Shown: one piece after another, positions 2,195 through 17,774 of the stretch
Numbering within the stretch: the first letter of the stretch is position 1
How the letters are laid out: each line of letters starts with the position of its first letter
Assembly: GCA_000004695.1 (NCBI GenBank)
Contig: CM000153.2
Span: 1,664,001 to 1,728,000 of the forward strand
DNA from: Dictyostelium discoideum
Lineage: Eukaryota
Length of the DNA stretch: 64,000 nucleotides
Direction: 5' to 3'
The notes under the pieces: model-generated
What the model saw: the letters and a program-made list of their open reading frames with translations, nothing else
Databases searched by the model: none
What the model was told of the DNA's origin: nothing
Translations under genes and position numbers: made by a program

Positions 2195-2241
<47 letters not shown>

Positions 2242-2249
2242 AAATTGTT

Positions 2250-2790
2250 TATTTAAAACTGGAATTATTTTCACCACATTTTTTGTTATAAAAAAAAAAA
2301 ATTAAAGGTATTTAAAAATAAAAAAAATGGTAAAAATTCACAAGATTTGCCAAGCTAATTAATTTTTTTTTTTTTTTAATGCGCAAAGATAAATTTCAAT
2401 ATTATCCTCATCATTTAAAATTGTGAAATTAGAAGTAATAAATGTATTTATCCTTTAACAAACACACCTAAATTTTATCAAGGGTCTAGAGGATAGAGGG
2501 ACAATCATTACAAGTAATGAATACTTTAAAAAAAAATTGGATTTCTCATAAAAATCTTTTCATTCCAAACATTGTGAAAACAACTCTAAACAATCTATTC
2601 AAATGATAATTTGACCTTTTATTTATAAATATAAAATTAAAATTAATTATCTCTAATAATATAATAATTTTTTTAAAAAAAAAAAATTTACATAATAATT
2701 TTTTTTTTTTTTTTAATCCCAATTTGAATCAGATGTTGTATCCATTGGAGCATTACTACTACTACTACTACTATTTCTTTTGCCTTTAAT
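2250..2790. repeat. segmental duplicate of 12350..12900 (3' end plus downstream flank of the NELF-B gene), including a copy of its last 14 codons
   Basis: Near-identical alignment read by eye (caaattgtttatttaaaactgg … aatcccaatttgaatcagatgttgt(a/g)tccattggagcattactactac). The copy diverges after 2790. Confidence 0.7.
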
Positions 2791-2946
2791 GTCCAAACTC
2801 ACTAAAAATAATTAATATTTCAGACCTAGATTTGGATGTTTGTAAATAAAAAATGGTTGCTGATTTTTATTTTTTAAAGATTAAATAATTAATTTTTTTT
2901 TTTGACAAAATACACCACCTGGCTTTTAATTGATATAAAAAAGACA

Positions 2947-3001
2947 GTTGACGAAGGTTTCTTTGAATGTAAGGAAATGTTAGATTTGCTGTAAGGTCAA
3001 C
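2947..3001 (-). ncRNA. Class I ncRNA gene (Dictyostelium class I RNA family), ~55 nt
   Basis: On the minus strand: GTTGAC-CCTTACAGCAA-…-GTCAAC. This is the conserved 11-nt Class I motif directly after the 5' half of a terminal stem whose 3' half is the exact complement. A DUSE-like box lies 72-80 nt upstream on the same strand. Confidence 0.6.
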
Positions 3002-3072
3002 TTTAATGTTTCTCACATTTTCTTAAAATGATATAAACATATAAAATTGAAACATTAAAATTAAAAATAGAA

Positions 3073-3081
3073 ATATGGGAT
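3073..3081 (-). promoter_or_regulatory. DUSE-like upstream element (ATCCCATAT, one mismatch) for the Class I RNA at 2947-3001
   Basis: Plus strand atatgggat; its spacing to the RNA 5' end matches the other copies. Confidence 0.45.
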
Positions 3082-3148
3082 CCAATCCTCCTCAAATCTT
3101 TTATTTTCTTATTTAATTAATAAAAAATAATTAATTTTGTTTGAAAAT

Positions 3149-3182
<34 letters not shown>

Positions 3183-3189
3183 CTCAATT

Positions 3190-3840
3190 TTTTTTTTTTT
3201 TTTCTCAAAAACCCATAAAAAGTTTTAATCAAATATCAATACCATTTTTAAATTTGAATTAAATATATTTTCGACGGGCATATCAGGACATCGAGTTTAA
3301 AACCTATTCAGACTCCAGAATACAAATTAATTTGAGCGGCAACGTTCATATCAATCTGCACTTAACAAATCATTAGAGGAATGGTTGCAAAATCATCCTC
3401 TGATGGTTAAAAAAATGCTGAGAAGTAACAGCATTAAAAAAAACATTTAGACCATAGTGGTGAGTCTTAAAATCCCAACCAGTTAGTAGAGACTAAAAAT
3501 CTACAAACAATAAACTCGATCTGATAACTGAAATGTCTTTTTTATTTTATTATTATTTTATTTAATTTTTTTATAATGGTAATAGAAATGGAAATGATAA
3601 TGTGACATCCTTGTTTACACCAACTAAAACTTTATTATATCTAAAGAAAACTAATTGCAATAAAAGAAGTTTAAGAAGAAAAAAAATAAAAATAAAAAAA
3701 AAGTGATAATAATTTTATTGATGATAATAAATAATTATAAATGTACGTCATATTACTATAAATAATATTACTTTATATTTACTAATTTATTTATTAATAT
3801 ATATTTTAATATTTATTAAATTAAAAAAAAAAAAAAAATT
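3190..3840. repeat. ~650-bp non-coding block (block M) repeated at 10738..11340 with a ~60-bp indel
   Basis: Shared strings cccataaaaagttttaatcaaatatcaataccatttttaaatttgaattaaatatatttt…gagcggcaacgttc…gctgagaagta(a/t)cagcattaaaaaaaacattt…taatggtaat(a/g)…aatggaaatg(a/g)taatgtgacatcc… in the same order. Confidence 0.7.
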
Positions 3841-3874
3841 TTTGAAATGTGATTTTAATCTCAAAACAATTAAG

Positions 3875-3903
3875 TTGATCCTACAAAAGAAACCTTCGTC
3901 AAC
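3875..3903 (+). pseudogene. degenerate/truncated Class I RNA-like remnant
   Basis: gttgatcctacaaaagaaaccttcgtcaac keeps the terminal stem halves but the CCTTACAGCAA motif is decayed (cctacaaaag), the total is only ~29 nt, and there is no DUSE upstream. Confidence 0.3.
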
Positions 3904-4016
3904 TGTCTTTTTTTTTTTTTTTTTTCTTTCAATTAATATTATTTCAAGTCTAAATTTAAATTTTTAGATTTACAAAATGCAAATTGGTAATTATTGATGA
4001 GAAAAATCCTATTTTT

Positions 4017-4065
<49 letters not shown>

Positions 4066-4121
4066 CTTGACAATTTAACAAGAAATTAAAAAAAAGTTTG
4101 TTTTTTTTATTAGTTAATACT

Positions 4122-4130
4122 ATCCCACAA
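4122..4130 (+). promoter_or_regulatory. DUSE (ATCCCACAA) 72-80 nt upstream of the Class I RNA at 4202
   Basis: Exact match to the (A/T)CCCA(C/T)AA consensus at the canonical distance. Confidence 0.6.
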
Positions 4131-4201
4131 AATTATTTTTTATTTAAAATTTCTTAAATAATTAATTATTTCAATCTTTTTTTAAATGTGCAAACATTTA
4201 A

Positions 4202-4257
4202 GTTGACCTTACAGCAAATCTTACAGTTCCTTCATTCTAAGAAAACCTTCCGTCAAC
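4202..4257 (+). ncRNA. Class I ncRNA gene, 56 nt
   Basis: gttgaccttacagcaaatcttacagttccttcattctaagaaaaccttccgtcaac: a 6-bp terminal stem GTTGAC/GTCAAC, with CCTTACAGCAA immediately after the 5' stem half. Confidence 0.7.
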
Positions 4258-4269
4258 TGTCTTTTTATT

Positions 4270-4555
4270 AATTAATTATTTATTTTGTATTACCATCATT
4301 AACTCTTGTATTTAATTCTTGAGCAATAATATATGTTAATTTAAGTTTTTTTAAAATTTAATAAGATTAAATTAAAAAATGATAATAAATAATTTTTTAA
4401 ATTTTTTAATCTTTTTTTAAATTAATTAAATAATAAATATATTAAAATATTATTTCTACTTATTGTTTAATTTTATCACAAAGTTACTTTATTAAATTTT
4501 ATTACAAAATAAAGGTATGAATAAGAAATTAATTTACTAAATAATTTTTTTTTTT
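4270..4555. repeat. block X, diverged copy at ~12100..12345
   Basis: Shared segments (ataagattaaat…, tttatcacaaa…, ttacaaaataaaggtat(g/a)aataagaaatta). Confidence 0.5.
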
Positions 4556-4733
4556 TTTTTAATCCCAATTTGAATCAGATGTTGTATCCATTGGAGCATT
4601 ACTACTACTACTTCTACTATTTTTTTTGCCTTTAATGTCCAAACTCACTAAAAATTATTAATATTTCAGACCTAAATTTGGATGTTTGTAAATAAAAAAT
4701 GGTTGCTGATTTTTATTTTTTAAAGATTAAATA

Positions 4734-4764
<31 letters not shown>

Positions 4765-4808
4765 TTGATAAAATACACCACTGGCTTTTAATTGATATAA
4801 AAATGACA

Positions 4809-4863
4809 GTTGACGAAGGTTTCTTTGAATGTAAGGAAATGTTAGATTTGCTGTAAGGTCAAC
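4809..4863 (-). ncRNA. Class I ncRNA gene (identical to the 2947-3001 copy)
   Basis: Same sequence as copy 1, minus strand. The DUSE atcccataa (plus strand ttatgggat, 4936-4944) lies 73-81 nt upstream. Confidence 0.65.
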
Positions 4864-4935
4864 TTTAATGTTTCTCACATTTTCTTAAAATGATATAAAC
4901 ATATAAAATTGAAAACATTAAAATTAAAAATAGAA

Positions 4936-4944
4936 TTATGGGAT
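4936..4944 (-). promoter_or_regulatory. DUSE (ATCCCATAA) for the Class I RNA at 4809-4863
   Basis: Consensus match at the canonical distance on the minus strand. Confidence 0.55.
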
Positions 4945-5236
4945 CCAATCCTCCTAAATTTTTTTATTTTCTTATTAAATTAATAAAAAATAATTAATTT
5001 TGTTTGGAAGAAGCAAATGGGAATAAAGTTATCGAAAAGGGTCTTTATTCTTATAAGATGATCAAAGATTCGCTGCTTCACCAGATGGTGTAATATTCGA
5101 TAAAATATCAGAAAGAGGATCGGAATGATCGAGATGCAAAAAAATATAAAAAAATTAAAAAAAAAATAAAAAAAAAAAAAAATTAAAAAAAAATAAAAAA
5201 AAAAAATTTTATCATGAAAAAGTCGATAATATTTTT

Positions 5237-6304
5237 TTGTGCTGCACTTTCAAATTAAAAATGTCCACCAAGCCAGTTAGCTTAACAAAAGAAATAATTT
5301 ATAAAATAAATAATTTTTTAAAAGATAAAGATACTTTCACCCCATTTAAAATCAAAGAAAAAGTATATGATAATAATATTTCCTTCACAACAATCCAAGA
5401 TAATTATGGTTATAATATTAATTGTTTACAAGGTGACAATTTGTGTTTAAAGGGTGCATCCAAAAATACCATCAAAATTTCAGTATACGCGTCGTTTTCA
5501 GATTTTTGGGGACATGCTTATTTCTTACATTATCATCTTGGACACGCACCAGCACATAAAATTTTAAAGATACTTAAAGAACTTAAACTTGGATTTCCAA
5601 AAATGAATAATGATATTTCAAATTATTTAATGATCATTTGTCCCATGTGCGTTCATTCTAACCGTAAAAATTTCAGTTCAAAAAACTTCGACCAAAATGA
5701 ATATTACAAAATATGTGAATGTATTGGTATGGATCCAGCACTCCTTATACAACCACAAATAATAAATCCACTTAACAATGTAAGAGGCAATGAAGAATCA
5801 ATGACATTTTCTTTTCTCACAGATCCAACTCCAACTGCGTACCTCGGCGAACCCACCCAAATAATAAATGTACCACCAACATATGATTACCAAATCATAA
5901 ATAGAGAGATATCAGATGAAATAGAGCCATTGATTTTTAAACCAATCATCAATAATTTAAAAATATTTCCTGCCGATTTGAATGATATTCCAATGTCTGC
6001 TTCCGTTCCAGAGCTTTTCGCTGAACCATACCTACATGTTTTCAAATCGTTTCCTCTTTATAAATCAAGTACTTTTGTTATTTGTATCGGTCGTTTTAAG
6101 AATATTGAAAATGAGAATTTACCCTTTTATTTAATAATAGCTGTAGATATAGACGATATTAAAAATAATGACCATATTCTATTAAATTATAGACCTTTGT
6201 TACAAGATCAAATAAATGGAAATTTTCATTTATTTGCAGAATTTAACCACAAAGAACACTCAAAAAAAAAATTAATAGAAATTGTACCATTCGCCAATTT
6301 GTAA
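5237..6304 (+). CDS. hypothetical protein with an HHCC-like zinc-binding motif (H-x-H-x2-H-x3-H … ~28 aa … C-P-M-C); part of the helicase island
   Basis: 355-aa ORF. LHYHLGHAPAHKILKILKELKLGFPKMNNDISNYLMIICPMC resembles the HH-CC zinc finger of integrase N-terminal domains. No DDE triad was recognised downstream. Confidence 0.35.
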   Translation: MCCTFKLKMSTKPVSLTKEIIYKINNFLKDKDTFTPFKIKEKVYDNNISFTTIQDNYGYNINCLQGDNLCLKGASKNTIKISVYASFSDFWGHAYFLHYHLGHAPAHKILKILKELKLGFPKMNNDISNYLMIICPMCVHSNRKNFSSKNFDQNEYYKICECIGMDPALLIQPQIINPLNNVRGNEESMTFSFLTDPTPTAYLGEPTQIINVPPTYDYQIINREISDEIEPLIFKPIINNLKIFPADLNDIPMSASVPELFAEPYLHVFKSFPLYKSSTFVICIGRFKNIENENLPFYLIIAVDIDDIKNNDHILLNYRPLLQDQINGNFHLFAEFNHKEHSKKKLIEIVPFANL

Positions 6305-6454
6305 ATTAAAAAATAAAACAAAATAAAAAAAAATAAAATATAAAAATTTGTAAATAAAAAGTTGTTTTTTTTTTATGGCAAAAAAAAAAAAAAATAAAAA
6401 AAAATAAAAATTAAAAAATTACTTTTTTTATGGTGAAATTTCATGTTGTAATTG

Positions 6455-6506
<52 letters not shown>

Positions 6507-6725
6507 GCAAACTAAATTTTTTTGTTATAAAAAAATAAATAACAAGCAAATAACTGAATAAAATTGGTTTTTTATTTTTCTGATTAAATAAATTGTTTTT
6601 TAATTTAATTATAAAAAAAAAAAAAATTTAGTGAATTTTTACACCATACATAAACAGCGTATTTTAGTGTAAAAATTCACTGCCGTTTAGAAAGCGAAAT
6701 TTCAAAAAAAATTCCCTACAACATG

Positions 6726-6835
6726 AAATTTTATGGTGAAATTTTTATGGTGAAATTTTATGGTGAAATTTTTATGGTGAAATTTTATGGTGAAATTTTA
6801 TAACCATAAAAATTCACCATAAAATATTTTTTTCA
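6726..6835. repeat. iteron-like tandem repeat: five direct copies of (t)tttatggtgaaat(t) plus one inverted copy (aattcaccataaaat), directly upstream of the helicase ORF
   Basis: Direct reading: …ttttatggtgaaatttttatggtgaaattttatggtgaaatttttatggtgaaattttatggtgaaattttataaccataaaaattcaccataaaat. A further copy, ggtgaaatttcatgttgtaattg, lies at 6434-6456. Confidence 0.7.
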
Positions 6836-6894
6836 AAAAAAAAAAAAATATAAATTTTTAAAAAAAAAAAATAATTATTCATCAAAAAAAAAAA

Positions 6895-9099
6895 ATGTCC
6901 AACAAAAGAGCCAGGATCGAAGATAGAGTTAACTTTTTAAAAGAAGAAAAATTTAATAAACCATATAATGTAGGTTTTAATTTAGATCCAAATAATGGGG
7001 AAGAAGAATATTTTGATATTGATACGAAAAGGGCTATTACCATGGTGGAAACGGCTCTTTGTACTTGTAAAATTGATGTCAGTATTGCTGTTTTTACAAT
7101 CTTAAAAATTCTTTCTTTAAAATTTGTTTTCAATACATCTGAAAATAAATTTTTTGTTAAAACCATTGGTTTCAAGGATAAAAATACAGGAAATGTTTCT
7201 TATGTTTTGGAAGAGATAAACGAATCAACAATTAAAAATATTCTTGGTTTAAATGATGGAATATCAAACAACAAATTAGAATCTGTACCTACCGAGCCAA
7301 TGACAGATAATATGATCTATGATGTGGATTTGGTAACCGATTTGGGTTTAAATAGAATTAAATTTGGTTTAGCAATTGAAGTTATGGAATATTTCAAAGA
7401 TTCAGAGAATTATTATTATCCAACGGGTAGATGTGGTTATACATATAGTGAATGGGAAGAAATATTTATAAGATGTCATTTGAAATCAAACTACAAAGAG
7501 AGCACAAAATCTATTGATATTTTGGGTTTTTTCAGATCTTCAACACTTGGTTACAGAGTCAATAATTTAATTTATGAACCACATGGCGCATTGGACCAGT
7601 GTGAAATTGTTGATGGTTTAGATGAGTGGTCCGGTGCATTCAATCAATTTACGGGTTTCCATCCAGAGTCGTTTGAACCAAGAAGAGATGAGATCGATGA
7701 TTTGGGTTTAAAGGTTGGGTGGAGAAATGATAAAAACATAATGAAAATTCTTTTTCATATTTATGTTGTTTGGTGTGATAGTTATGTCCCATTATTCCAA
7801 TATGTTTTATCCTGGTTTACAATATCTCTATTTGCTCCTAATACCAAACTTAGTAAACATTTAGTAATTTTCGGTCAACAAGGTTGTGGTAAATCGTTAC
7901 CAACAAGAGTTTTATTAAAATTATTCTCTGATAAGAATAGTTTCTTTGCTAATAGTGCCGAAGACGTTTTGGGTCATTTTAATCATCATTTAAATGGTCG
8001 GTTGTTTGTTGCTGTTGATGAACTTTCACCTAAATACTTGGAGCGTGAGAGATTTAAATCTCTCTTGACAGGTAGAGAAATGGTTATTACTCAAAAATAC
8101 AAGGGTAAAAAAAAAGAAATTAATAGGCTCAGATTCATCTGCTGTACAACCTCAAATAAAATCCAGAAAGGTCAAAGTTGTGTTCAATTATTAGTGTGCT
8201 CTCCAGTCGCAGTCGGTCAAACAAATTATTTTAAAAATTTGCACAATAGTATTGAAAATTTTGATGTAAAACTTTTCACTCGTATGTTGTTCGATGTATC
8301 TTTGGATAATTTTGGCAACGGTGGTGTAGAAATATCTAATCCATCCATTAATGCATATTCTACCACTTCAAATGTTATCAGATCTAACAGAAATGATAAC
8401 CAGGATGATAGTGTTAGTTTATACATTAATAAATTCTTGATGTCATGTATTCTTGATGGAGGTATATTGAGGGATGAAAATAATAATTATCATTGGCCCT
8501 CAAGATTACCAATTAGTAAAATAACCGAGAGATTCAACCAATGGATATCGGACACTTATCCATCAAGTAACGAAGTTAACGGTGAATTGGTTGCATCTGA
8601 AAAATCTCCTCAACGTTTGGTTTGTGAAAATATTATCACAAGTAATAATTTGATAACTTATATTTATCAAGCTGGTGGTTTTAAATATCTTTATACCACA
8701 TCAGGAAATAGATCGTCTATCAGTCTCTCAAGTAATGAGTATCAGTTTGTTTATGAATTTTTAAACAAGAACATTTCTTTATTCACACCCAAACAAATTG
8801 ATACACTTTGTGAAAGATATCTATCCCTTGGTATATCTGAACCAAATGAATTAATATCACATTTAACCTTAACTAAACAAAAACGAGTGAACCCTTTTGA
8901 AGAAATTGATACACATGTCTTTGAAGTTATAGAACATATTCATAAGAGTTTCTTAAGAACAAATGGTGATAGTACTTATTTTAAGGGATGGGGTGATGAA
9001 GTTGATCCAATTCTAAATGTTGAAGTTCCTGGTACAATGTTACTAAATGATCCATTTATTAAAACCCATAGGGAGTTCTTATCGTCACAAATTAATTAA
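6895..9099 (+). CDS. superfamily-3 helicase domain protein of the D5 / phage P4-alpha primase-helicase type (734 aa)
   Basis: Walker A VIFGQQGCGKS (nt ~7873-7899), Walker B LFVAVDELS (~8008-8030) and SF3 motif C FICCTTSN (~8140-8157) in the canonical order and spacing. ~300 aa N-terminal to Walker A includes YFDIDTK, a possible AEP-primase motif I. Single long ORF without introns. Confidence 0.65.
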   Translation: MSNKRARIEDRVNFLKEEKFNKPYNVGFNLDPNNGEEEYFDIDTKRAITMVETALCTCKIDVSIAVFTILKILSLKFVFNTSENKFFVKTIGFKDKNTGNVSYVLEEINESTIKNILGLNDGISNNKLESVPTEPMTDNMIYDVDLVTDLGLNRIKFGLAIEVMEYFKDSENYYYPTGRCGYTYSEWEEIFIRCHLKSNYKESTKSIDILGFFRSSTLGYRVNNLIYEPHGALDQCEIVDGLDEWSGAFNQFTGFHPESFEPRRDEIDDLGLKVGWRNDKNIMKILFHIYVVWCDSYVPLFQYVLSWFTISLFAPNTKLSKHLVIFGQQGCGKSLPTRVLLKLFSDKNSFFANSAEDVLGHFNHHLNGRLFVAVDELSPKYLERERFKSLLTGREMVITQKYKGKKKEINRLRFICCTTSNKIQKGQSCVQLLVCSPVAVGQTNYFKNLHNSIENFDVKLFTRMLFDVSLDNFGNGGVEISNPSINAYSTTSNVIRSNRNDNQDDSVSLYINKFLMSCILDGGILRDENNNYHWPSRLPISKITERFNQWISDTYPSSNEVNGELVASEKSPQRLVCENIITSNNLITYIYQAGGFKYLYTTSGNRSSISLSSNEYQFVYEFLNKNISLFTPKQIDTLCERYLSLGISEPNELISHLTLTKQKRVNPFEEIDTHVFEVIEHIHKSFLRTNGDSTYFKGWGDEVDPILNVEVPGTMLLNDPFIKTHREFLSSQIN

Positions 9100-9586
9100 T
9101 TCTAAAATAAACTGTTTTTTTTTTTTAATATTTTAAAAAATTATAAAATAATTTTTTTTTATTTATTTATTTATTATAATTTTAATTTAATTTTTAAAAA
9201 TGGAAGAGTTTGAAGAAATTACAGTACATAATTCTGACACGATCAGAAAAGAATTTTTAAGGAAAAATGCATTTTCCCTTAAAAAAAGAAGATAAAGATA
9301 TTTTAAAACAAAAGGACAATGAACCAAAGCAACCAACAGATATTAAAAAACCAAGAGCAGCATCAAAAAAATAGGAAAAAGAAGAAAAAACTGTTCCAAT
9401 CGTGAATGATAAAAAAAGACAAGCAGAGGTAAGAAAATATGTTTCATTTAGGAATTTTCATTAATTAAAAGGTGTAACAGGTCCTGATATTCCGAATAAA
9501 GCATCAACACAAGAATTGGTAATAGAAAATCAAAAAATGGAAGAAATGTTATCATCACAAGATCAAATGAAGGTTGCAAAGGTCTT

Positions 9587-9901
9587 TTGGATTATGACAA
9601 CAAAGGATTAGAATCAGTTCACAAAGATGTACCATTTTTAAACAAATTAAATTTAGAAGGACATGGTGAAAATGCTTTTAATGCATGGGATGAGGTCAAA
9701 GATATATGGCAGGAATTAACTATAAAATATGAACTTTTCAGGTCAGGTGTCGAACTTCGTTTAGCAATGGCATTCGTGAATAGTGTTGCAACAACTCATA
9801 AAATAAACTCATTTAAATTCGAAAAATCAACAAATGAAGAAAAATCTCAAAGTATTAATAACAATGAAAAATTATCTGAAGCACTAAAGAGAAAAATATA
9901 A
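9587..9901 (+). CDS. small hypothetical ORF in the helicase island (104 aa)
   Basis: ORF only; no recognisable motifs. Confidence 0.2.
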   Translation: MDYDNKGLESVHKDVPFLNKLNLEGHGENAFNAWDEVKDIWQELTIKYELFRSGVELRLAMAFVNSVATTHKINSFKFEKSTNEEKSQSINNNEKLSEALKRKI

Positions 9902-9910
9902 ATAAAGACG

Positions 9911-10258
9911 ATGGAATTTTTATCACTTGGTATGGGATTATTAATAGGTAGTTATTTTTTCCCTTACTCATCCACAAAAAATGATACAAAATCATCATAT
10001 AAAAAGTCACAAACAAAAGATCCAACATTATCAAACTATATTGAACTTCATGACCTTGGAAAATTAACACCAAAAGAAAGGGTAGTAGTCGAGTTTAGGA
10101 GATTCAACACAGGATCTCAAATGTTATCATATAAATTCGATCCGGCATTCTCTCATAAAGATTTTGAGTACGATGTCTTGTTGTCTTGTGGTAAGAAAAT
10201 TCTAGTACACCTCCATAATTTACCAAAAATTGGAAAGGATATTCACGAATCACATTAA
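9911..10258 (+). CDS. small hypothetical ORF in the helicase island (115 aa)
   Basis: ORF only; abuts the preceding and following ORFs. Confidence 0.2.
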   Translation: MEFLSLGMGLLIGSYFFPYSSTKNDTKSSYKKSQTKDPTLSNYIELHDLGKLTPKERVVVEFRRFNTGSQMLSYKFDPAFSHKDFEYDVLLSCGKKILVHLHNLPKIGKDIHESH

Positions 10259-10670
10259 AAAAAGAGTAGAAATGGAAGCAGTTTTAGCAATGACACATGC
10301 AAATATTCAAGTTAGTATTGGGTCAATCTTAGGTCACCAATTGGATGAAATTTGTAACAATTATCTTTTAAGAGAAACAAAAAAACAACAATCACAATTC
10401 ATTATTCCAACATTGGTTGACCCAATGGATATTCATTTATCAAAAATAAAAAATGCCAACTCAGAAGATATAATGAAAGCAACAGGTATCCAAATTACAT
10501 CTGGTGTTTCTATTACACTTTTATTAGGGAATGGTGCACCTTTTTTATTTTCAGGTGACCCAATGTTTGGTATCCCATTTTACCTCACTTTTTTTGGTGG
10601 TCAAGAAAAAATGTTAGCAAATTTTAAAGAATTAAATAAAAGACTTGATAATACAATTAAATTGAAATAA
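10230..10670 (+). CDS. small hypothetical ORF in the helicase island (146 aa)
   Basis: ORF only. Confidence 0.2.
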   Translation: MERIFTNHIKKRVEMEAVLAMTHANIQVSIGSILGHQLDEICNNYLLRETKKQQSQFIIPTLVDPMDIHLSKIKNANSEDIMKATGIQITSGVSITLLLGNGAPFLFSGDPMFGIPFYLTFFGGQEKMLANFKELNKRLDNTIKLK

Positions 10671-11653
10671 ATAAATAAATAAAAAAGTTTCACAACTATT
10701 TATTTTTTTTTTTTTTTTCTAAATTTTTTTTTTTTTCCCAAAAACCCATAAAAAGTTTTAATCAAATATCAATACCATTTTTAAATTTGAATTAAATATA
10801 TTTTCAACGGGCATATCAAGACATCGAGTATAAAACCTATTCAGACACCAGAATACAAATTAAAAAGAGCGGCAACGTTCTTATAAATCTGCACCTCAAT
10901 GTTAAGAACGGCAACGTTCATATCATTCTGCAATACTCGTATCACCAAGGAACTGATTGAAATCAACCTCAGATTGAGTACATAATGCGCTGAGAAGTAT
11001 CAGCATTAAAAAAAACATTTAAATAACCTAAACTCGATCTGATACCTGAAATGTCTTTTTTATTTTATTTTTTTATTTTTTTTTTATTTTTTTATAATGG
11101 TAATGTAAATGGAAATGGTAATGTGACATCCCTATTTACATCAACAAAAACTATATTATATCTACAGAAACCTACTTGCAATAAAAGAAGTTTAGAAGAA
11201 AAAATAAAAAAATAAAAATAAAAGTGTGATAATAATTTTATTGATAAATATTATGTACATCATATTATTATAAATAATATTAATGTTTATTTACTAATTT
11301 AATATATACTTTAATATTTTAATTATTAAATTAAAAAAAAAAATAAAAAAATAAAAAAATTATTTATTATTTTTTTTTTATATTGATTAATCGGTGTTTA
11401 TCCATTAAAGGAAATAAACTATAATTAATTAGTTTGATGAGTTTTAATTTTAAAAAATTAGTTAAAAAAAATTTCTAGGGTCATAATTATTTATTTAACC
11501 ACTAAATTTTTTTATTTAATTTTTTAATTATCTAATCTTAGAAAAAACTAAAAAACTAAAAAAAAAACATATTATTGCTAATGACTTTTTAAAATGAGAG
11601 GTTATCCTAAATAAATAATTAAATAAATAAATAATTAATTAATTAAAAAGACA

Positions 11654-11709
11654 GTTGACGGAGGGTTTTCTTAGAATGAAGGAACTGTAAGATTTGCTGT
11701 AAGGTCAAC
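11654..11709 (-). ncRNA. Class I ncRNA gene, 56 nt
   Basis: Minus strand gttgaccttacagcaaatcttacagttccttcattctaagaaaaccctccgtcaac, one difference from the 4202 copy. The DUSE atcccacaa lies 73-81 nt upstream on the minus strand. Confidence 0.7.
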
Positions 11710-11781
11710 TTAAATGTTTTACACATTTAAAAAAAGATTGAAAAAATTAATTATTTAAGAAATTTGGAGTGAAAAATAATT

Positions 11782-11790
11782 TTGTGGGAT
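11782..11790 (-). promoter_or_regulatory. DUSE (ATCCCACAA) for the Class I RNA at 11654-11709
   Basis: Plus strand ttgtgggat. Confidence 0.6.
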
Positions 11791-11876
11791 TTCAATATAA
11801 AAAAAAAAAAAAAAAAACTCTAATTAAATTCGAATATTTGGTAATTATTTAAGAATTGAATTTTGTTGAACTATCT

Positions 11877-11885
11877 ATCCCACAA
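11877..11885 (+). promoter_or_regulatory. DUSE (ATCCCACAA) upstream of the divergent Class I-like locus at 11966
   Basis: Exact consensus, 81-89 nt upstream. Confidence 0.5.
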
Positions 11886-11965
11886 ATTTTTATTTGGTTA
11901 TTAAATTCCGAAAAAAAGAATATTTGAATTTTATTTGAAATGTGAATGTAATCACAAACAATTAA

Positions 11966-12019
11966 GTTAATCCTACAGCAATTCTATTACTCAACATGCA
12001 AAAGAAATCCTTTGTCAAC
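11966..12019 (+). ncRNA. divergent Class I RNA-like locus (motif CCTACAGCAA with a 1-nt deletion; 5' stem GTTAAT vs 3' GTCAAC)
   Basis: gttaatcctacagcaattctattactcaacatgcaaaagaaatcctttgtcaac. It retains a DUSE but the stem and motif are imperfect, so it may be a variant or a decaying copy. Confidence 0.4.
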
Positions 12020-12836
12020 TGTCTTTTTTTTTTTCTTTCATTTAATAATTTCAAGTATATTTTTTAATTTTTAGATTTACCAAATGCGAATCGGTAATTA
12101 TTGATGAGAAAAATCCTATGTTAATTGAAGTTTTTTTAATATTTTATAAGATTAAATAATAAAATGATAATTATAAAAAATAGTTTTTTTAATTTTTTTA
12201 ATTATTTTCTTTAATTAATTAATTTTCTAAAATAAATATTAATATTATTTATTATTCTTATTATTCAATTTTATCACAAAATAACACTTTTTTAATTTAT
12301 TTACAAAATAAAGGTATAAATAAGAAATTAAAACTTTTGGAAACAAAAAATCAAATTGTTTATTTAAAACTGGAATTATTTTCACCACTTTTTTTTTTAT
12401 TTGTGTTATAAAAAGAAAAATAAAAGGTATTTAACAATAAAAAAATGGTAAAAATTCAATAGAGATTTGCCAAGCTAATTAATTTTTTTTTTTTTTTTAA
12501 TGAGCGAAGATAAATTTTAATATTATCTTCATCATTTTAAATTGAGGCATAAGAAGTAATAAATGTATTTATCCTTTAATAAACACATCTAAATGTTATC
12601 AAGGGTCTAGAGGATAGAGGGACAATCATTACAAGTAATGAATGTTTTATAAAAATCTTTTCATTTCATAAAAATCTTTTCATTTCAAACATTGTGAAAA
12701 CAACTCTGAACAATCAATTCAAATGATCATTTGACCTTTTATTTATAAATATAAAATTAAAAATAATTATCTCAAATAATATAATAATTTTTTTAAAAAA
12801 AAAAAAATTTACTAAATAATTTTATTTATTTTTTTT

Positions 12837-13419
12837 TTAATCCCAATTTGAATCAGATGTTGTGTCCATTGGAGCATTACTACTACTACTACTACTACTA
12901 TTGTTGTTGTTATTATTATTACTATTATTATTAATATTATTTGAACTAGTTTCCATTGGAGATTCAGTTGAAGATGGTGGTGCGCTTGTAATATTTGAGC
13001 CAGTATTATTTGATACTGAAGAAGTTGAAGATGGTGCACTAATTAATTCAGAAGAAGACAATGTTGGTGAAACCATTTTATCAATTGGTTGAGATAATTG
13101 TGAATGTTGTTGTAATAAATGTTGATGTTGTTGTTGCTGATTGGTTAAAGTTGGTGAAAGGAATTGTTTTTGATTTAATTTATAAAATTCGTATAGTGAC
13201 AATGCTATCTTTTCATTATATCTTTGACTGGTTTTATCGATTAATAATCTAGTAGAATGAACTATATCATCCAATAATTTTTTATTTACATTGTTATTTC
13301 CTTCAATTGTTTGTTGTTGTTGTTGTTGTTGTTGTTGTTTTTTATAAGTTGATAATACACTATTATATAATTTTTGAATAAAATGAATAAATTCTCTTTG
13401 ATTCATTCTTGTATGATTC

Positions 13420-16127: not shown

Positions 16128-17774
16128 ATGAGTGAAGAACAAAAACCAATGGAAACAAATACAAAAGTTGAAGAAAAGAAACCAAGAGAAAAGAAAGAAA
16201 AGAAACCAGCAGTTGAAAAGAAAGCAGTAGTTGAAAAGAAAGGTGATGTTAAAGCAAATCTTTTAGGTGCAGGTTGTAAAAAAGAAGAAGATTTTTCAGA
16301 ATGGTATCAAAATGTTATTACACGTTCAGAGATGATTGACTATTATGATATTTCAGGTTGTTATATTCTCAGACCATGGGCATACTCAATTTGGGAGCAA
16401 ATTCAAGCATTCTTTGATGCAGAGATTAAGAAATTGGATGTACAAAATGCATACTTCCCATTGTTAGTCTCAGAGAAGGCATTGACCACAGAAAAGGATC
16501 ATATTGAAGGTTTTGCACCAGAGGTTGCATGGGTAACAAAGAGTGGTGATTCACAATTGGCCGATCCAGTTGCAATTCGTCCAACTTCCGAAACCATTAT
16601 GTATCCAGCATATGCCAATTGGATTCGTTCTCATAGAGATTTACCATTGAAATTGAATCAATGGGTAAATGTTGTACGTTGGGAATTCAAACGTCCAGTA
16701 CCATTCCTTCGTAGCAGAGAATTCCTCTGGCAAGAGGGTCACACTGCCTTTGCAAACAAGGAAGAGGCCGATGAAGAGGTATTCACAATTCTCGATTTAT
16801 ACAGACGTGTCTATGAGGAATTATTATGTGTACCAGTTGTAAAGGGTGTAAAATCTGAAAAAGAGAAATTCGCCGGTGGTCTTTACACAACCACTATCGA
16901 AGGTTTCATCCCAACCAATGGTCGTGGTATTCAAGCTGCCACTTCACATGCTTTGGGTCAAAACTTTTCAAAAATGTTCAATATTGAATTCGAGAATGAT
17001 AAAGGTACCAAATCATTGGCATGGCAAAACAGTTGGGGTTTAACCACTCGTACCATTGGTGTCATGGTTATGGTCCATGGTGATGACAAAGGTTTGGTTC
17101 TCCCACCACGTATCTCCCCAATTCAAGCTGTCGTCATTCCACTCCACTTTAAGGATTCCGATACCACCGCCGTAGATTCAAAGGCTAAAGAAATCGCTGA
17201 TCAATTAAAGGCTGCCGGTATTCGTGTCAATTTAGATAATCGTCCAAACTACAATCCAGGTCATAAATACAATCATTGGGAATTGAAAGGTGTTCCAATT
17301 CGTATTGAAATCGGTCCAAAAGATGTTGCCTCTGGTACTGTCATCTGTTGTCGTAGAGATACCGCCGAGAAATCTAAAGTTGAAATCTCAAACATTGTCA
17401 CTGGTGTCAAGGAATTACTCGACAACATTCAATCAAATCTCTTTGATCGTGCTGTTAAACAAAGAAATGATCATATCGTCACCATCAATCAATGGAATGA
17501 GTTTGTTCCAGCTTTGGATAATAAAAACCTTGTTTTAGCACCATGGTGCGAAAAAGTCTCTTGTGAAGATTCAATCAAAAAGAAGAGTTCTGAAGAATCT
17601 AAAAATAAAGCTGAAGAAGAAAAAGGTTTCTGTTTAACTGGTGCCGCCAAATCATTATGTATTCCATTACAAAATCAAGAACATGTTAAACTTCCAGAAA
17701 TTAAAGATGATACTAAATGTTTCTGTTGTCAAGAAAAAGCAACAAAATATACTCTCTTTGGTAGATCTTATTAA
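16128..17774 (+). CDS. prolyl-tRNA synthetase (class II, eukaryotic/archaeal type), single exon, 548 aa
   Basis: ProRS signature stretches: SGCYILRPWAYSIWEQIQ, AIRPTSETIMYPAYANWIRSHRDLPLKLNQWVNVVRWE, and a C-terminal zinc-binding-like CxxC…CxxC. Lys-rich N-terminal extension. Confidence 0.9.
   Translation: MSEEQKPMETNTKVEEKKPREKKEKKPAVEKKAVVEKKGDVKANLLGAGCKKEEDFSEWYQNVITRSEMIDYYDISGCYILRPWAYSIWEQIQAFFDAEIKKLDVQNAYFPLLVSEKALTTEKDHIEGFAPEVAWVTKSGDSQLADPVAIRPTSETIMYPAYANWIRSHRDLPLKLNQWVNVVRWEFKRPVPFLRSREFLWQEGHTAFANKEEADEEVFTILDLYRRVYEELLCVPVVKGVKSEKEKFAGGLYTTTIEGFIPTNGRGIQAATSHALGQNFSKMFNIEFENDKGTKSLAWQNSWGLTTRTIGVMVMVHGDDKGLVLPPRISPIQAVVIPLHFKDSDTTAVDSKAKEIADQLKAAGIRVNLDNRPNYNPGHKYNHWELKGVPIRIEIGPKDVASGTVICCRRDTAEKSKVEISNIVTGVKELLDNIQSNLFDRAVKQRNDHIVTINQWNEFVPALDNKNLVLAPWCEKVSCEDSIKKKSSEESKNKAEEEKGFCLTGAAKSLCIPLQNQEHVKLPEIKDDTKCFCCQEKATKYTLFGRSY

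Follow-up and report, generated by a model that had tools for sequence, protein, structure and literature searches.

The spacer at positions 6305-6894 of a 64-kb stretch of Dictyostelium discoideum chromosomal DNA (the window) carries short direct repeats and palindromes immediately upstream of an intact gene for a predicted superfamily 3 (SF3) helicase, DDB_G0284191. The G/C-containing repeats and palindromes of the spacer are non-random and, within the 64 kb, specific to this locus, and the helicase gene lies in a truncated block of virus-derived DNA. By analogy with replication origins of other systems, we tentatively take the spacer to be where an endogenised virus- or plasmid-like element has its origin and control sequences, which the adjacent helicase would bind, a reading which we regard as quite possible, if short of probable. 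The window has a mean GC content of about 20 %, long homopolymer tracts and proteins with poly-Q/N/T stretches. The open reading frames (ORFs) on either side of the spacer are annotated genes of D. discoideum AX4, and the repeats therefore sit in a eukaryotic chromosome (chromosome 4): the ORF at 6895-9099 is 100 % identical to DDB_G0284191, and the spacer separates it from DDB_G0284189, both being annotated as hypothetical genes.

Five perfect copies of the 13-mer TTTATGGTGAAAT run in tandem on the forward strand over 6730-6796, with starts at 6730, 6744, 6757, 6771 and 6784 and a spacing that alternates between 14 and 13. Tandem Repeats Finder describes the array as 6724-6801 with a period of 13 and 5.8 copies, and also as a 27-bp double unit repeated 2.8 times at 100 % identity. 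An earlier note on this DNA had proposed five tandem units, and the array bears this out with five copies of TTTATGGTGAAAT and zero mismatches. All repeats listed in that note are present in the sequence, several of them 2-10 nt away from where it had put them. The inverted copy, for example, exists as AATTCACCATAAAAT but lies at 6811-6825 instead of 6821-6835, and its 13-mer, at 6811-6823, carries one mismatch. The last direct unit or units and the 1.5 inverted units together form a dyad at 6782-6825, with 20-nt arms, a 4-nt centre and 95 % complementarity.

The array opens with a variant unit, TACAACATGAAATTT, at 6717-6731 (forward strand), which is also the right arm of an inverted repeat bracketing the middle of the spacer. 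The left arm, AAATTTCATGTTGTA at 6436-6450, matches it perfectly over 15 bp and the two enclose 266 bp; the bracketing repeat described earlier is thus real, although 15 bp long and perfect instead of about 20 bp. The left arm belongs to a distal site at 6427-6450 (forward strand), in which a perfect iteron TTTATGGTGAAAT (6427-6439) overlaps the inverted variant unit TTCATGTTGTA. As the exact reverse complement of TACAACATGAAATTT overlaps the distal iteron, the distal site is a head-to-head pair. The distal copy ggtgaaatttcatgttgta of the earlier note is found here, at 6432-6450 and not at 6434-6452. The order of sites along the spacer is therefore a distal iteron (+) with a variant unit (-), followed on the proximal side by a variant unit (+), five iterons (+) and one and a half iterons (-).

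Between these opposed sites lies a perfect palindrome, 6630-6681, whose 15-bp arms (AGTGAATTTTTACAC at 6630-6644 and GTGTAAAAATTCACT at 6667-6681) are separated by a 22-nt spacer; a perfect pair had been described with 14-bp arms at 6636-6681, and the palindrome stands with longer arms and an earlier start. The arms contain an iteron-like core, GTGAATTTTTA. As a DNA hairpin the palindrome has a predicted folding energy of -12.3 kcal/mol (z = -6.3), and the dyad at 6782-6825 has z = -6.1. An Rfam match of this dyad to mir-360 (28 bits, gathering score 60) was rejected as a hairpin artefact, and a scan for sigma-70 promoters and terminators, which is irrelevant to a eukaryote, gave background levels.

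Two further features complete the spacer. The A-run of about 50 nt noted earlier is present as an A48 homopolymer at 6455-6502 (forward strand), typical of the host and polymorphic in length: it measures 48 nt here and 32 nt in a second D. discoideum assembly (L004), in which the remaining 542 bp of the spacer are identical. A TATAAAT followed by a T-run is found at 6849-6855 (forward strand), 46 bp 5' of the helicase ATG, and we take it, from general knowledge of Dictyostelium promoters, to be the probable core promoter. The distance from the end of the array to TATAAAT is 24 bp, and the helicase ORF begins 70 bp past the last repeat. Directly after the A-run, at 6503-6513, there is also a G/C-rich motif, TGGCGCAAAC (reverse complement TTTGCGCCA).

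The repeats stand apart both from chance and from the rest of the window. With up to one mismatch allowed, the 13-mer has seven matches in the 64 kb, every one inside the spacer, whereas shuffled sequences gave 1.04 +/- 1.11 matches and none of 100 reached seven. The earlier note had considered that the unit might turn out to be a common repeat unrelated to the locus; within the 64 kb it is not dispersed. Among the non-coding arrays of the window with a period of at least 10, the spacer array alone has G/C in its unit, all other arrays of such period being A/T-only or inside coding sequence. Likewise, the window contains 231 perfect inverted repeats (arm at least 12, spacer at most 40), and the 3 that have at least three G/C per arm are all in the spacer. 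Perfect 15-bp inverted repeats with at least three G/C arose in 8 of 2000 Markov-1 simulations of the spacer, and two are observed.

The same comparison removes part of the original argument. Long A/T tracts and the A-run had been counted as signs of an origin, but they have no weight, because they are normal in D. discoideum intergenic DNA and variable in length. Poly-A/T runs of 66-100 nt occur at no fewer than eight other intergenic sites of the window, and the GC content of the spacer, 14.2 %, is equalled or undercut in 13.5 % of 590-bp tiles.

The gene next to the repeats, DDB_G0284191 (6895-9099, forward strand), encodes 734 amino acids and, judged from its sequence, is an SF3 enzyme of the D5/VapE/DUF5906 group. 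Pfam matches were obtained to DUF5906 (49.6 bits, cutoff 27.6) and VapE-like (33.5 bits, cutoff 25). The Walker A motif (GQQGCGKS, residue 327), Walker B (VAVDE, 372) and motif C (TTSN within CCTTSN, 416) are intact and conserved. The PHROG matches to phage primase/helicase families cover the ATPase core alone, residues ~300-420. No Pfam match and no primase domain were detected in residues 1-275, where the model has a predicted local distance difference test (pLDDT) score below 40, and a primase-helicase fusion of the D5/P4 alpha type was rejected, as neither an AEP nor a toprim domain was detected at the N-terminus. The C-terminal part behaves differently in modelling of residues 480-700: ~507-650 are predicted with confidence (pLDDT 80-92) as two helix/beta-hairpin units, which are compatible with winged helices. 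Fold searches with this C-terminal model gave no significant match.

Close relatives of the whole protein are few. Word-indexed protein searches with the helicase or its alignment returned the query alone, low-complexity words having swamped the candidates. When 1.84 billion representative proteins were searched exhaustively with HMMER, 2131 matches were obtained, of which just two extended past the ATPase core: P0002, 34 % identical over the full length, and P0003, 30 % identical. When a profile of the three sequences was compared with the PDB, the sole match was 7PDS (E 3e-5), the SaPI1 Rep1-DNA complex, and this similarity is restricted to the ATPase core. With three full-length helicases among the proteins searched, they apparently represent an undescribed family of dictyostelid-associated virus-like elements. 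No published account of the locus was found in the literature on the gene identifier, on Dictyostelium endogenous viral elements or Polinton-like viruses, or on Ddp plasmids, and the IMG/VR and JGI metagenome contigs contained nothing matching the alignment of the helicase, that of the small downstream ORF o4, or the exact iteron strings of AX4 and of the P0002 contig described below.

P0002 is encoded on a 4625-bp Logan contig (L001, run ERR13950607), on which the helicase and the three small ORFs that follow it in AX4 (o2, o3 and o4) are all intact and in the AX4 order. The non-coding DNA of L001 contains a palindrome with 26-bp arms (4530-4594), an array of 11-bp repeats and a palindrome with 21-bp arms (87-141). 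The array has at least 4-5 units (TGCTGGTAAAT-like, core GGTAAAT) and is joined across the contig ends, the end ...AAATTTGCTGG overlapping the start TGCTGGTATTT TGTTGGTAAAT TGCAGGTAAAT TGCTGGTATGC. A dyad, a direct array and a second dyad next to a helicase gene are a layout that L001 and AX4 have in a similar form, and the unit cores, GGTAAAT and GGTGAAAT, respectively, are alike. The contig of a second, independent run, ERR13950634 (L003), is identical and stops one base earlier inside the array. Since the contigs of both runs stop there, the assembly graph branches inside the array, which fits either a 4.6-kb unit that is circular or concatemeric and has a variable copy number, or a larger genome in which the array occurs twice. 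The end-to-start overlap is only 6 nt and is compatible with a circle without proving one. As an observation by eye, TTTGCGC is common to the 6503-6513 motif of the AX4 spacer and the centre of an L001 palindrome (GATTTGCGCGCGTGCGCAAAATC, L001 104-125), and is reminiscent of E2F-type sites.

P0003 is carried by a larger virus-like island (L002) of Dictyostelium cf. discoideum (JBTAPH010000036.1, 1-22592). Besides the SF3 helicase, the island encodes dNK, an AEP-like/YqaJ fusion ORF, an A32-type ATPase (27.7 bits, cutoff 22.8) and a protein with a GRF zinc ribbon; o2, o3 and o4 form a module on the opposite strand. The AEP-type N-terminus (Pfam AEP_C962R, 20.1 bits, below the cutoff of 23) is fused to a strong YqaJ domain (PF09588, 2.9e-36) in an ORF separate from the helicase. 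No capsid gene turned up in L002, in an analysis that included no search aimed at capsid genes. By eye and without Pfam support, the L002 ORF 18105-18677, which begins MIIIGIDPG, looks RuvC/A22-like, and that at 17068-17631 has HUH-like and YxxK-like motifs.

Variation among wild isolates suggests that the AX4 helicase is retained. The wild-isolate allele P0156, present on Logan contigs, differs in its coding sequence by seven substitutions, six synonymous and one non-synonymous, and by an in-frame indel of 42 bp. The probability of at most one non-synonymous change among seven is 0.0004-0.008 under a model in which 80 % of the possible changes are non-synonymous (66 % for transitions). The insertion of the wild alleles follows codon 10 and reads TEKKTLLNKVIGRY (L007/L008). 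Divergence in these isolates is greater across o2-o4 than in the helicase. The substitution pattern indicates purifying selection on the helicase, whereas its neighbours o2 and o3 are decaying, which makes this virus-derived gene a candidate for domestication. The earlier note had named a non-functional or unexpressed helicase as evidence against an origin; here the ORF is intact and its sequence shows a signature of purifying selection. The wild-isolate contigs break in the poly-A at 6835, and the array lies outside their reach.

Several properties of the spacer correspond to those of iteron origins. A cluster of at least three direct repeats is present (five perfect units and one variant at 6717-6796, with the distal copy in addition), an initiator-type gene, the SF3 helicase ORF, is beside it, and the opposed sites flank a candidate unwinding stretch, 6451-6716, with 16.5 % GC, a composition that is ordinary here. 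Of the origin-like layout beside an initiator helicase claimed earlier, the non-random iterons and palindromes and the intact SF3 gene remain, and the viral context and the analogue in L001 lend support, whereas the A/T tracts are uninformative, a free replicon is not evident and a promoter role fits equally well. If the spacer does represent an origin and control region, the helicase would bind the sites with the GGTGAAAT core, both in the head-to-head pair at the distal site and in the proximal array including the inverted units that close it, recognising them via a DNA-binding domain as do SaPI Rep, phage P4 alpha and large T/E1. Once assembled on either side of the 266-bp AT-rich segment, in which the palindrome with 15-bp arms lies, it could melt this segment and then act as a self-loaded replicative helicase. 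A further role of the direct array might be to control the helicase promoter as operator or enhancer, or to maintain the element in the manner of the family of repeats (FR) of Epstein-Barr virus (EBV) oriP. We infer the binding of the repeats by the helicase, and the firing of the region as an origin in the past or at present, from these analogies.

The functionally closest systems would be the ori/Rep modules of Staphylococcus aureus pathogenicity islands (SaPIs), the ori/alpha module of phage P4 and the origins of small nuclear DNA viruses. SaPI Reps are self-loading SF3 helicases that double as initiators, their C-terminal winged-helix domain recognises short iterons adjoining the rep gene, and SaPI origins have an AT-rich centre with iterons on either side in opposite directions (PMC9371898). 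The Dictyostelium locus is like them in its SF3 helicase, in the short direct repeats beside the helicase gene, in the opposed repeats around an AT-rich centre and in having no separate loader. It differs in that SaPI iterons are 5-6 nt long and lie downstream of rep, whereas the units described here are 13-14 bp and lie upstream of the helicase; furthermore, the host is eukaryotic, only the ATPase core resembles Rep1, and the winged helix is no more than a candidate. The N-terminal domain of the helicase had been proposed earlier as the repeat binder, but this does not agree with the characterised relatives, in which the C-terminal winged helix binds the iterons (PMC9371898).

Unlike P4 alpha, the AX4 helicase has no detected primase domain in its N-terminal 275 residues, and P4 is bacterial. 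P4 alpha itself is an SF3 primase-helicase of the D5/P4 type, which binds octamer iterons via a C-terminal winged helix, the repeats being present at both ori and crr. EBV oriP, with its FR array and dyad symmetry element, and the polyomavirus and papillomavirus origins are control regions of nuclear episomes that combine a direct array, dyads and an AT tract. These control regions overlap the promoter of the initiator gene, and large T and E1 are SF3 helicases, while EBNA1 is no helicase. The DNA-binding domains and site sequences of these viruses are unrelated to those described here, and the Dictyostelium element is known as a chromosomal copy. Very few replication origins have been characterised in protist DNA viruses or virus-like elements, and eukaryotes have only a small number of natural nuclear plasmids. 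The locus offers a compact testable pair in a genetically tractable model, a 734-aa SF3 helicase and a region of about 400 bp in which the 13-bp sites are defined. Should the array prove to be bound by the helicase and the region able to replicate, an initiator/origin module with the logic of bacterial SaPI or P4 would be present inside a eukaryote, and it could possibly provide a new backbone for Dictyostelium vectors.

A number of observations weigh against the spacer being an origin. With the block truncated and its remaining genes in decay, it is unlikely to be a functional replicon at present. The end of the array is 24 bp from the TATA box, a typical position for a promoter element, and the five units, read as a 27-bp double repeat, are 100 % identical, as recent slippage would lead one to expect. 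The segment proposed to unwind is no more AT-rich than usual D. discoideum intergenic DNA. The best local alignment of the AX4 spacer with the non-coding DNA of L001 is not significant, being equalled by 29 of 200 shuffles, and the core common to the two, GGT(G)AAAT, is short. L002 has about 100 bp 5' of its helicase and no comparable array near it. Finally, the full-length model of the helicase is poor, with a mean pLDDT of 36.5.

A serious rival reading takes the units and dyads to be transcription-factor sites for the helicase gene that have never been used in replication. The factor could be encoded by the host or by another gene of the element, for example o2, or be the helicase itself acting as an autorepressor. 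The array lies 24-130 bp 5' of the TATAAAT at 6849-6855, which is 46 bp from the ATG; two assemblies have the same spacer sequence except in the A-run; and the helicase ORF is selectively maintained, for which a working promoter is needed. However, the comparable array of L001 is located ~590 bp from the helicase ATG and 160 bp past the preceding gene, and is therefore not a proximal promoter element; to our knowledge, the repeats also resemble no Dictyostelium regulatory element. As an exclusive explanation we consider this somewhat unlikely. It partly merges with an origin and control region in any case, as origin and promoter functions usually overlap in viral and plasmid systems. For the present day, a promoter/operator is the likeliest role of the spacer in the chromosome, and it probably works at least as such a region for the retained helicase gene.

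It is rather more doubtful that the array is a neutral minisatellite, formed by replication slippage in AT-rich non-coding DNA, with the dyads as by-products and without function. The identity of the double unit over its 2.8 copies would agree with this, as would the abundance of tandem repeats in D. discoideum intergenic DNA, the variation of the spacer homopolymer between assemblies and the lack of conserved primary sequence in common with L001. A neutral minisatellite would consist of head-to-tail copies alone, whereas here distal, inverted and 15-bp inverted-repeat copies are linked to the array. Slippage explains neither the perfect copy 290 bp away and its 15-bp inverted-repeat link to the array, nor the palindrome with 15-bp arms and an iteron-like core, nor the inverted units at the array end. 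All other non-coding arrays in the 64 kb are A/T-only, and L001 has a similar layout built from a different unit.

A more far-reaching version of the origin reading, which we consider a speculation with little chance of being correct as a whole, is that undescribed small nuclear episomes or mini-viruses exist in dictyostelids, and that D. discoideum has retained, under selection, an integrated relative's helicase along with the iteron array that belongs to it. The L001 type would then be a circle of ~4.6 kb with a self-loading SF3 helicase, three small ORFs and an iteron-plus-dyad origin. The retained pair might be used as an autoregulated host gene, as a helicase-dependent chromosomal origin, or as a decoy or interference module against infecting relatives.

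Least probable among the functional alternatives is another type of viral cis element: hr-like repeats, signals for packaging or for genome ends, or an array by which a larger virus would tether or partition its genome. The presence of array sequence at both ends of L001 and the break of the assemblies from two runs fit an array that occurs more than once per genome, and the YqaJ fragment of AX4 together with the A32-type packaging ATPase of L002 makes larger, capsid-forming viruses the probable ancestors, but the AX4 block holds just one array and is not bounded by terminal repeats, and L002 has no matching arrays.

The block that contains the spacer and the helicase gene spans 5.7 kb (5010-10687, forward strand) and is missing from a paralogous "empty" junction at 3146/3147. 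Self-BLAST of the window showed that 2230-5006 is a rearranged duplicate of 10699-12897, 80-94 % identical. In an alignment of the junctions, the two flank types abut at 3146/3147, whereas 5.7 kb intervenes between 5009/5010 and ~10687/10688, and 5010-10687 therefore behaves as an insertion relative to the paralogous empty site. Self-comparison of the block revealed no terminal repeats. At its left end, 5010-5130 (forward strand) is a frameshifted 3' fragment of a YqaJ-type exonuclease gene (..VIEKGLYSYK / DDQRFAASPDGVIFDKISERGSE*), which in six-frame translation (..DDQRFAASPDGVIFDK..) matches the L002 YqaJ ORF at 4013-4060 (tblastn, E 9e-4). A tblastx comparison of the block with L002 was dominated by low-complexity matches and was left out of account. 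As the block begins inside this truncated gene and contains decayed genes, it is a fragment of a larger virus-like element. It is a truncated, decaying chromosomal piece of virus-derived DNA and not an evident free replicon.

Three small ORFs follow the helicase gene. The first, o2 (9203-9901, forward strand), is a homologue of a 253-aa ORF of L001 and a pseudogene with in-frame stops and frameshifts: the tblastn matches are split over two frames and the stops are seen in the six-frame translation. An intron at 9419-9472 was rejected, since in comparison with L001 this stretch is coding sequence with an in-frame stop. o3 (10258 being its last position and 9911 its first, forward strand) has a hydrophobic N-terminus and is 45 % identical to o3 of L001; in wild isolates it has a frameshifting 8-bp deletion, 10174-10181 (L005/L006). 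o4 (10272-10670, forward strand) is the most conserved small ORF of the family, with 64 % identity to L001 and 44 % to L002, and the same wild-isolate contigs have an 18-bp in-frame deletion at 10502-10519. Whether or not the spacer is an origin, a virus-derived helicase is selectively kept amid decaying neighbours.

Known mobile elements were compared with the block. Polinton-like viruses often carry an SF3 helicase, S3H (PMC4642659). The locus resembles them and the Mavericks in being integrated virus-derived protist DNA with an SF3 helicase, and L002 adds an A32-type ATPase, YqaJ and an AEP-like domain. An assignment to Polintons/Mavericks or Polinton-like viruses was nevertheless rejected, as the AX4 block has S3H alone and no capsid gene, protein-primed DNA polymerase B, Pfam-recognisable rve or terminal inverted repeats. 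A complete transposon was likewise rejected on the absence of terminal repeats, the left end that cuts the YqaJ gene and the lack of an integrase-family match for the ORF upstream of the spacer. Helitrons combine an HUH Rep nuclease with a Pif1-like SF1 helicase, whereas the helicase here is SF3 and its ORF has no HUH domain. The nuclear plasmids Ddp1 and Ddp2 of Dictyostelium are 4-15 kb in size and have a rep gene and repeated cis elements, and the Ddp2 type is defined by a Rep ORF and inverted repeats of ~0.5 kb. By this description, the 4.6-kb L001 contig falls within the plasmid size range, and a Ddp2-type plasmid is set apart by the lack of a long inverted repeat in the block or L001; we know of no SF3 helicase described in Ddp plasmids.

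On the other side of the spacer, the "HHCC" ORF DDB_G0284189 (5261-6304, forward strand; 347 aa) is an exact match to XP_638634.1 and contains an H-x4-H...C-x2-C motif. It gave no Pfam or PHROG match, no rve and no family assignment, and has no homologue in L002. Further upstream, after a 100-N assembly gap, a retrotransposon-like ORF of 521 aa at 155-2097 has a CCHC-like region at its C-terminus and no significant Pfam match.

The final ~60 bp of the host gene 12837-13406(-) fall within the duplication around the block, and there is an internal duplication, 2685-3143 = 4531-5006. The duplicated flanks contain four Dictyostelium Class I RNA genes (RF01414), at 2945-3001(-), 4202-4259(+), 4807-4863(-) and 11652-11709(-), with Rfam scores of 50-54 bits (gathering score 41.5), and these explain a repeat family of ~95 bp in the self-BLAST of the window. 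On chromosome 2, a paralogue of o4, DDB_G0275479, is 45 % identical to the o4 of the window and thus marks a second locus of the element family in AX4.

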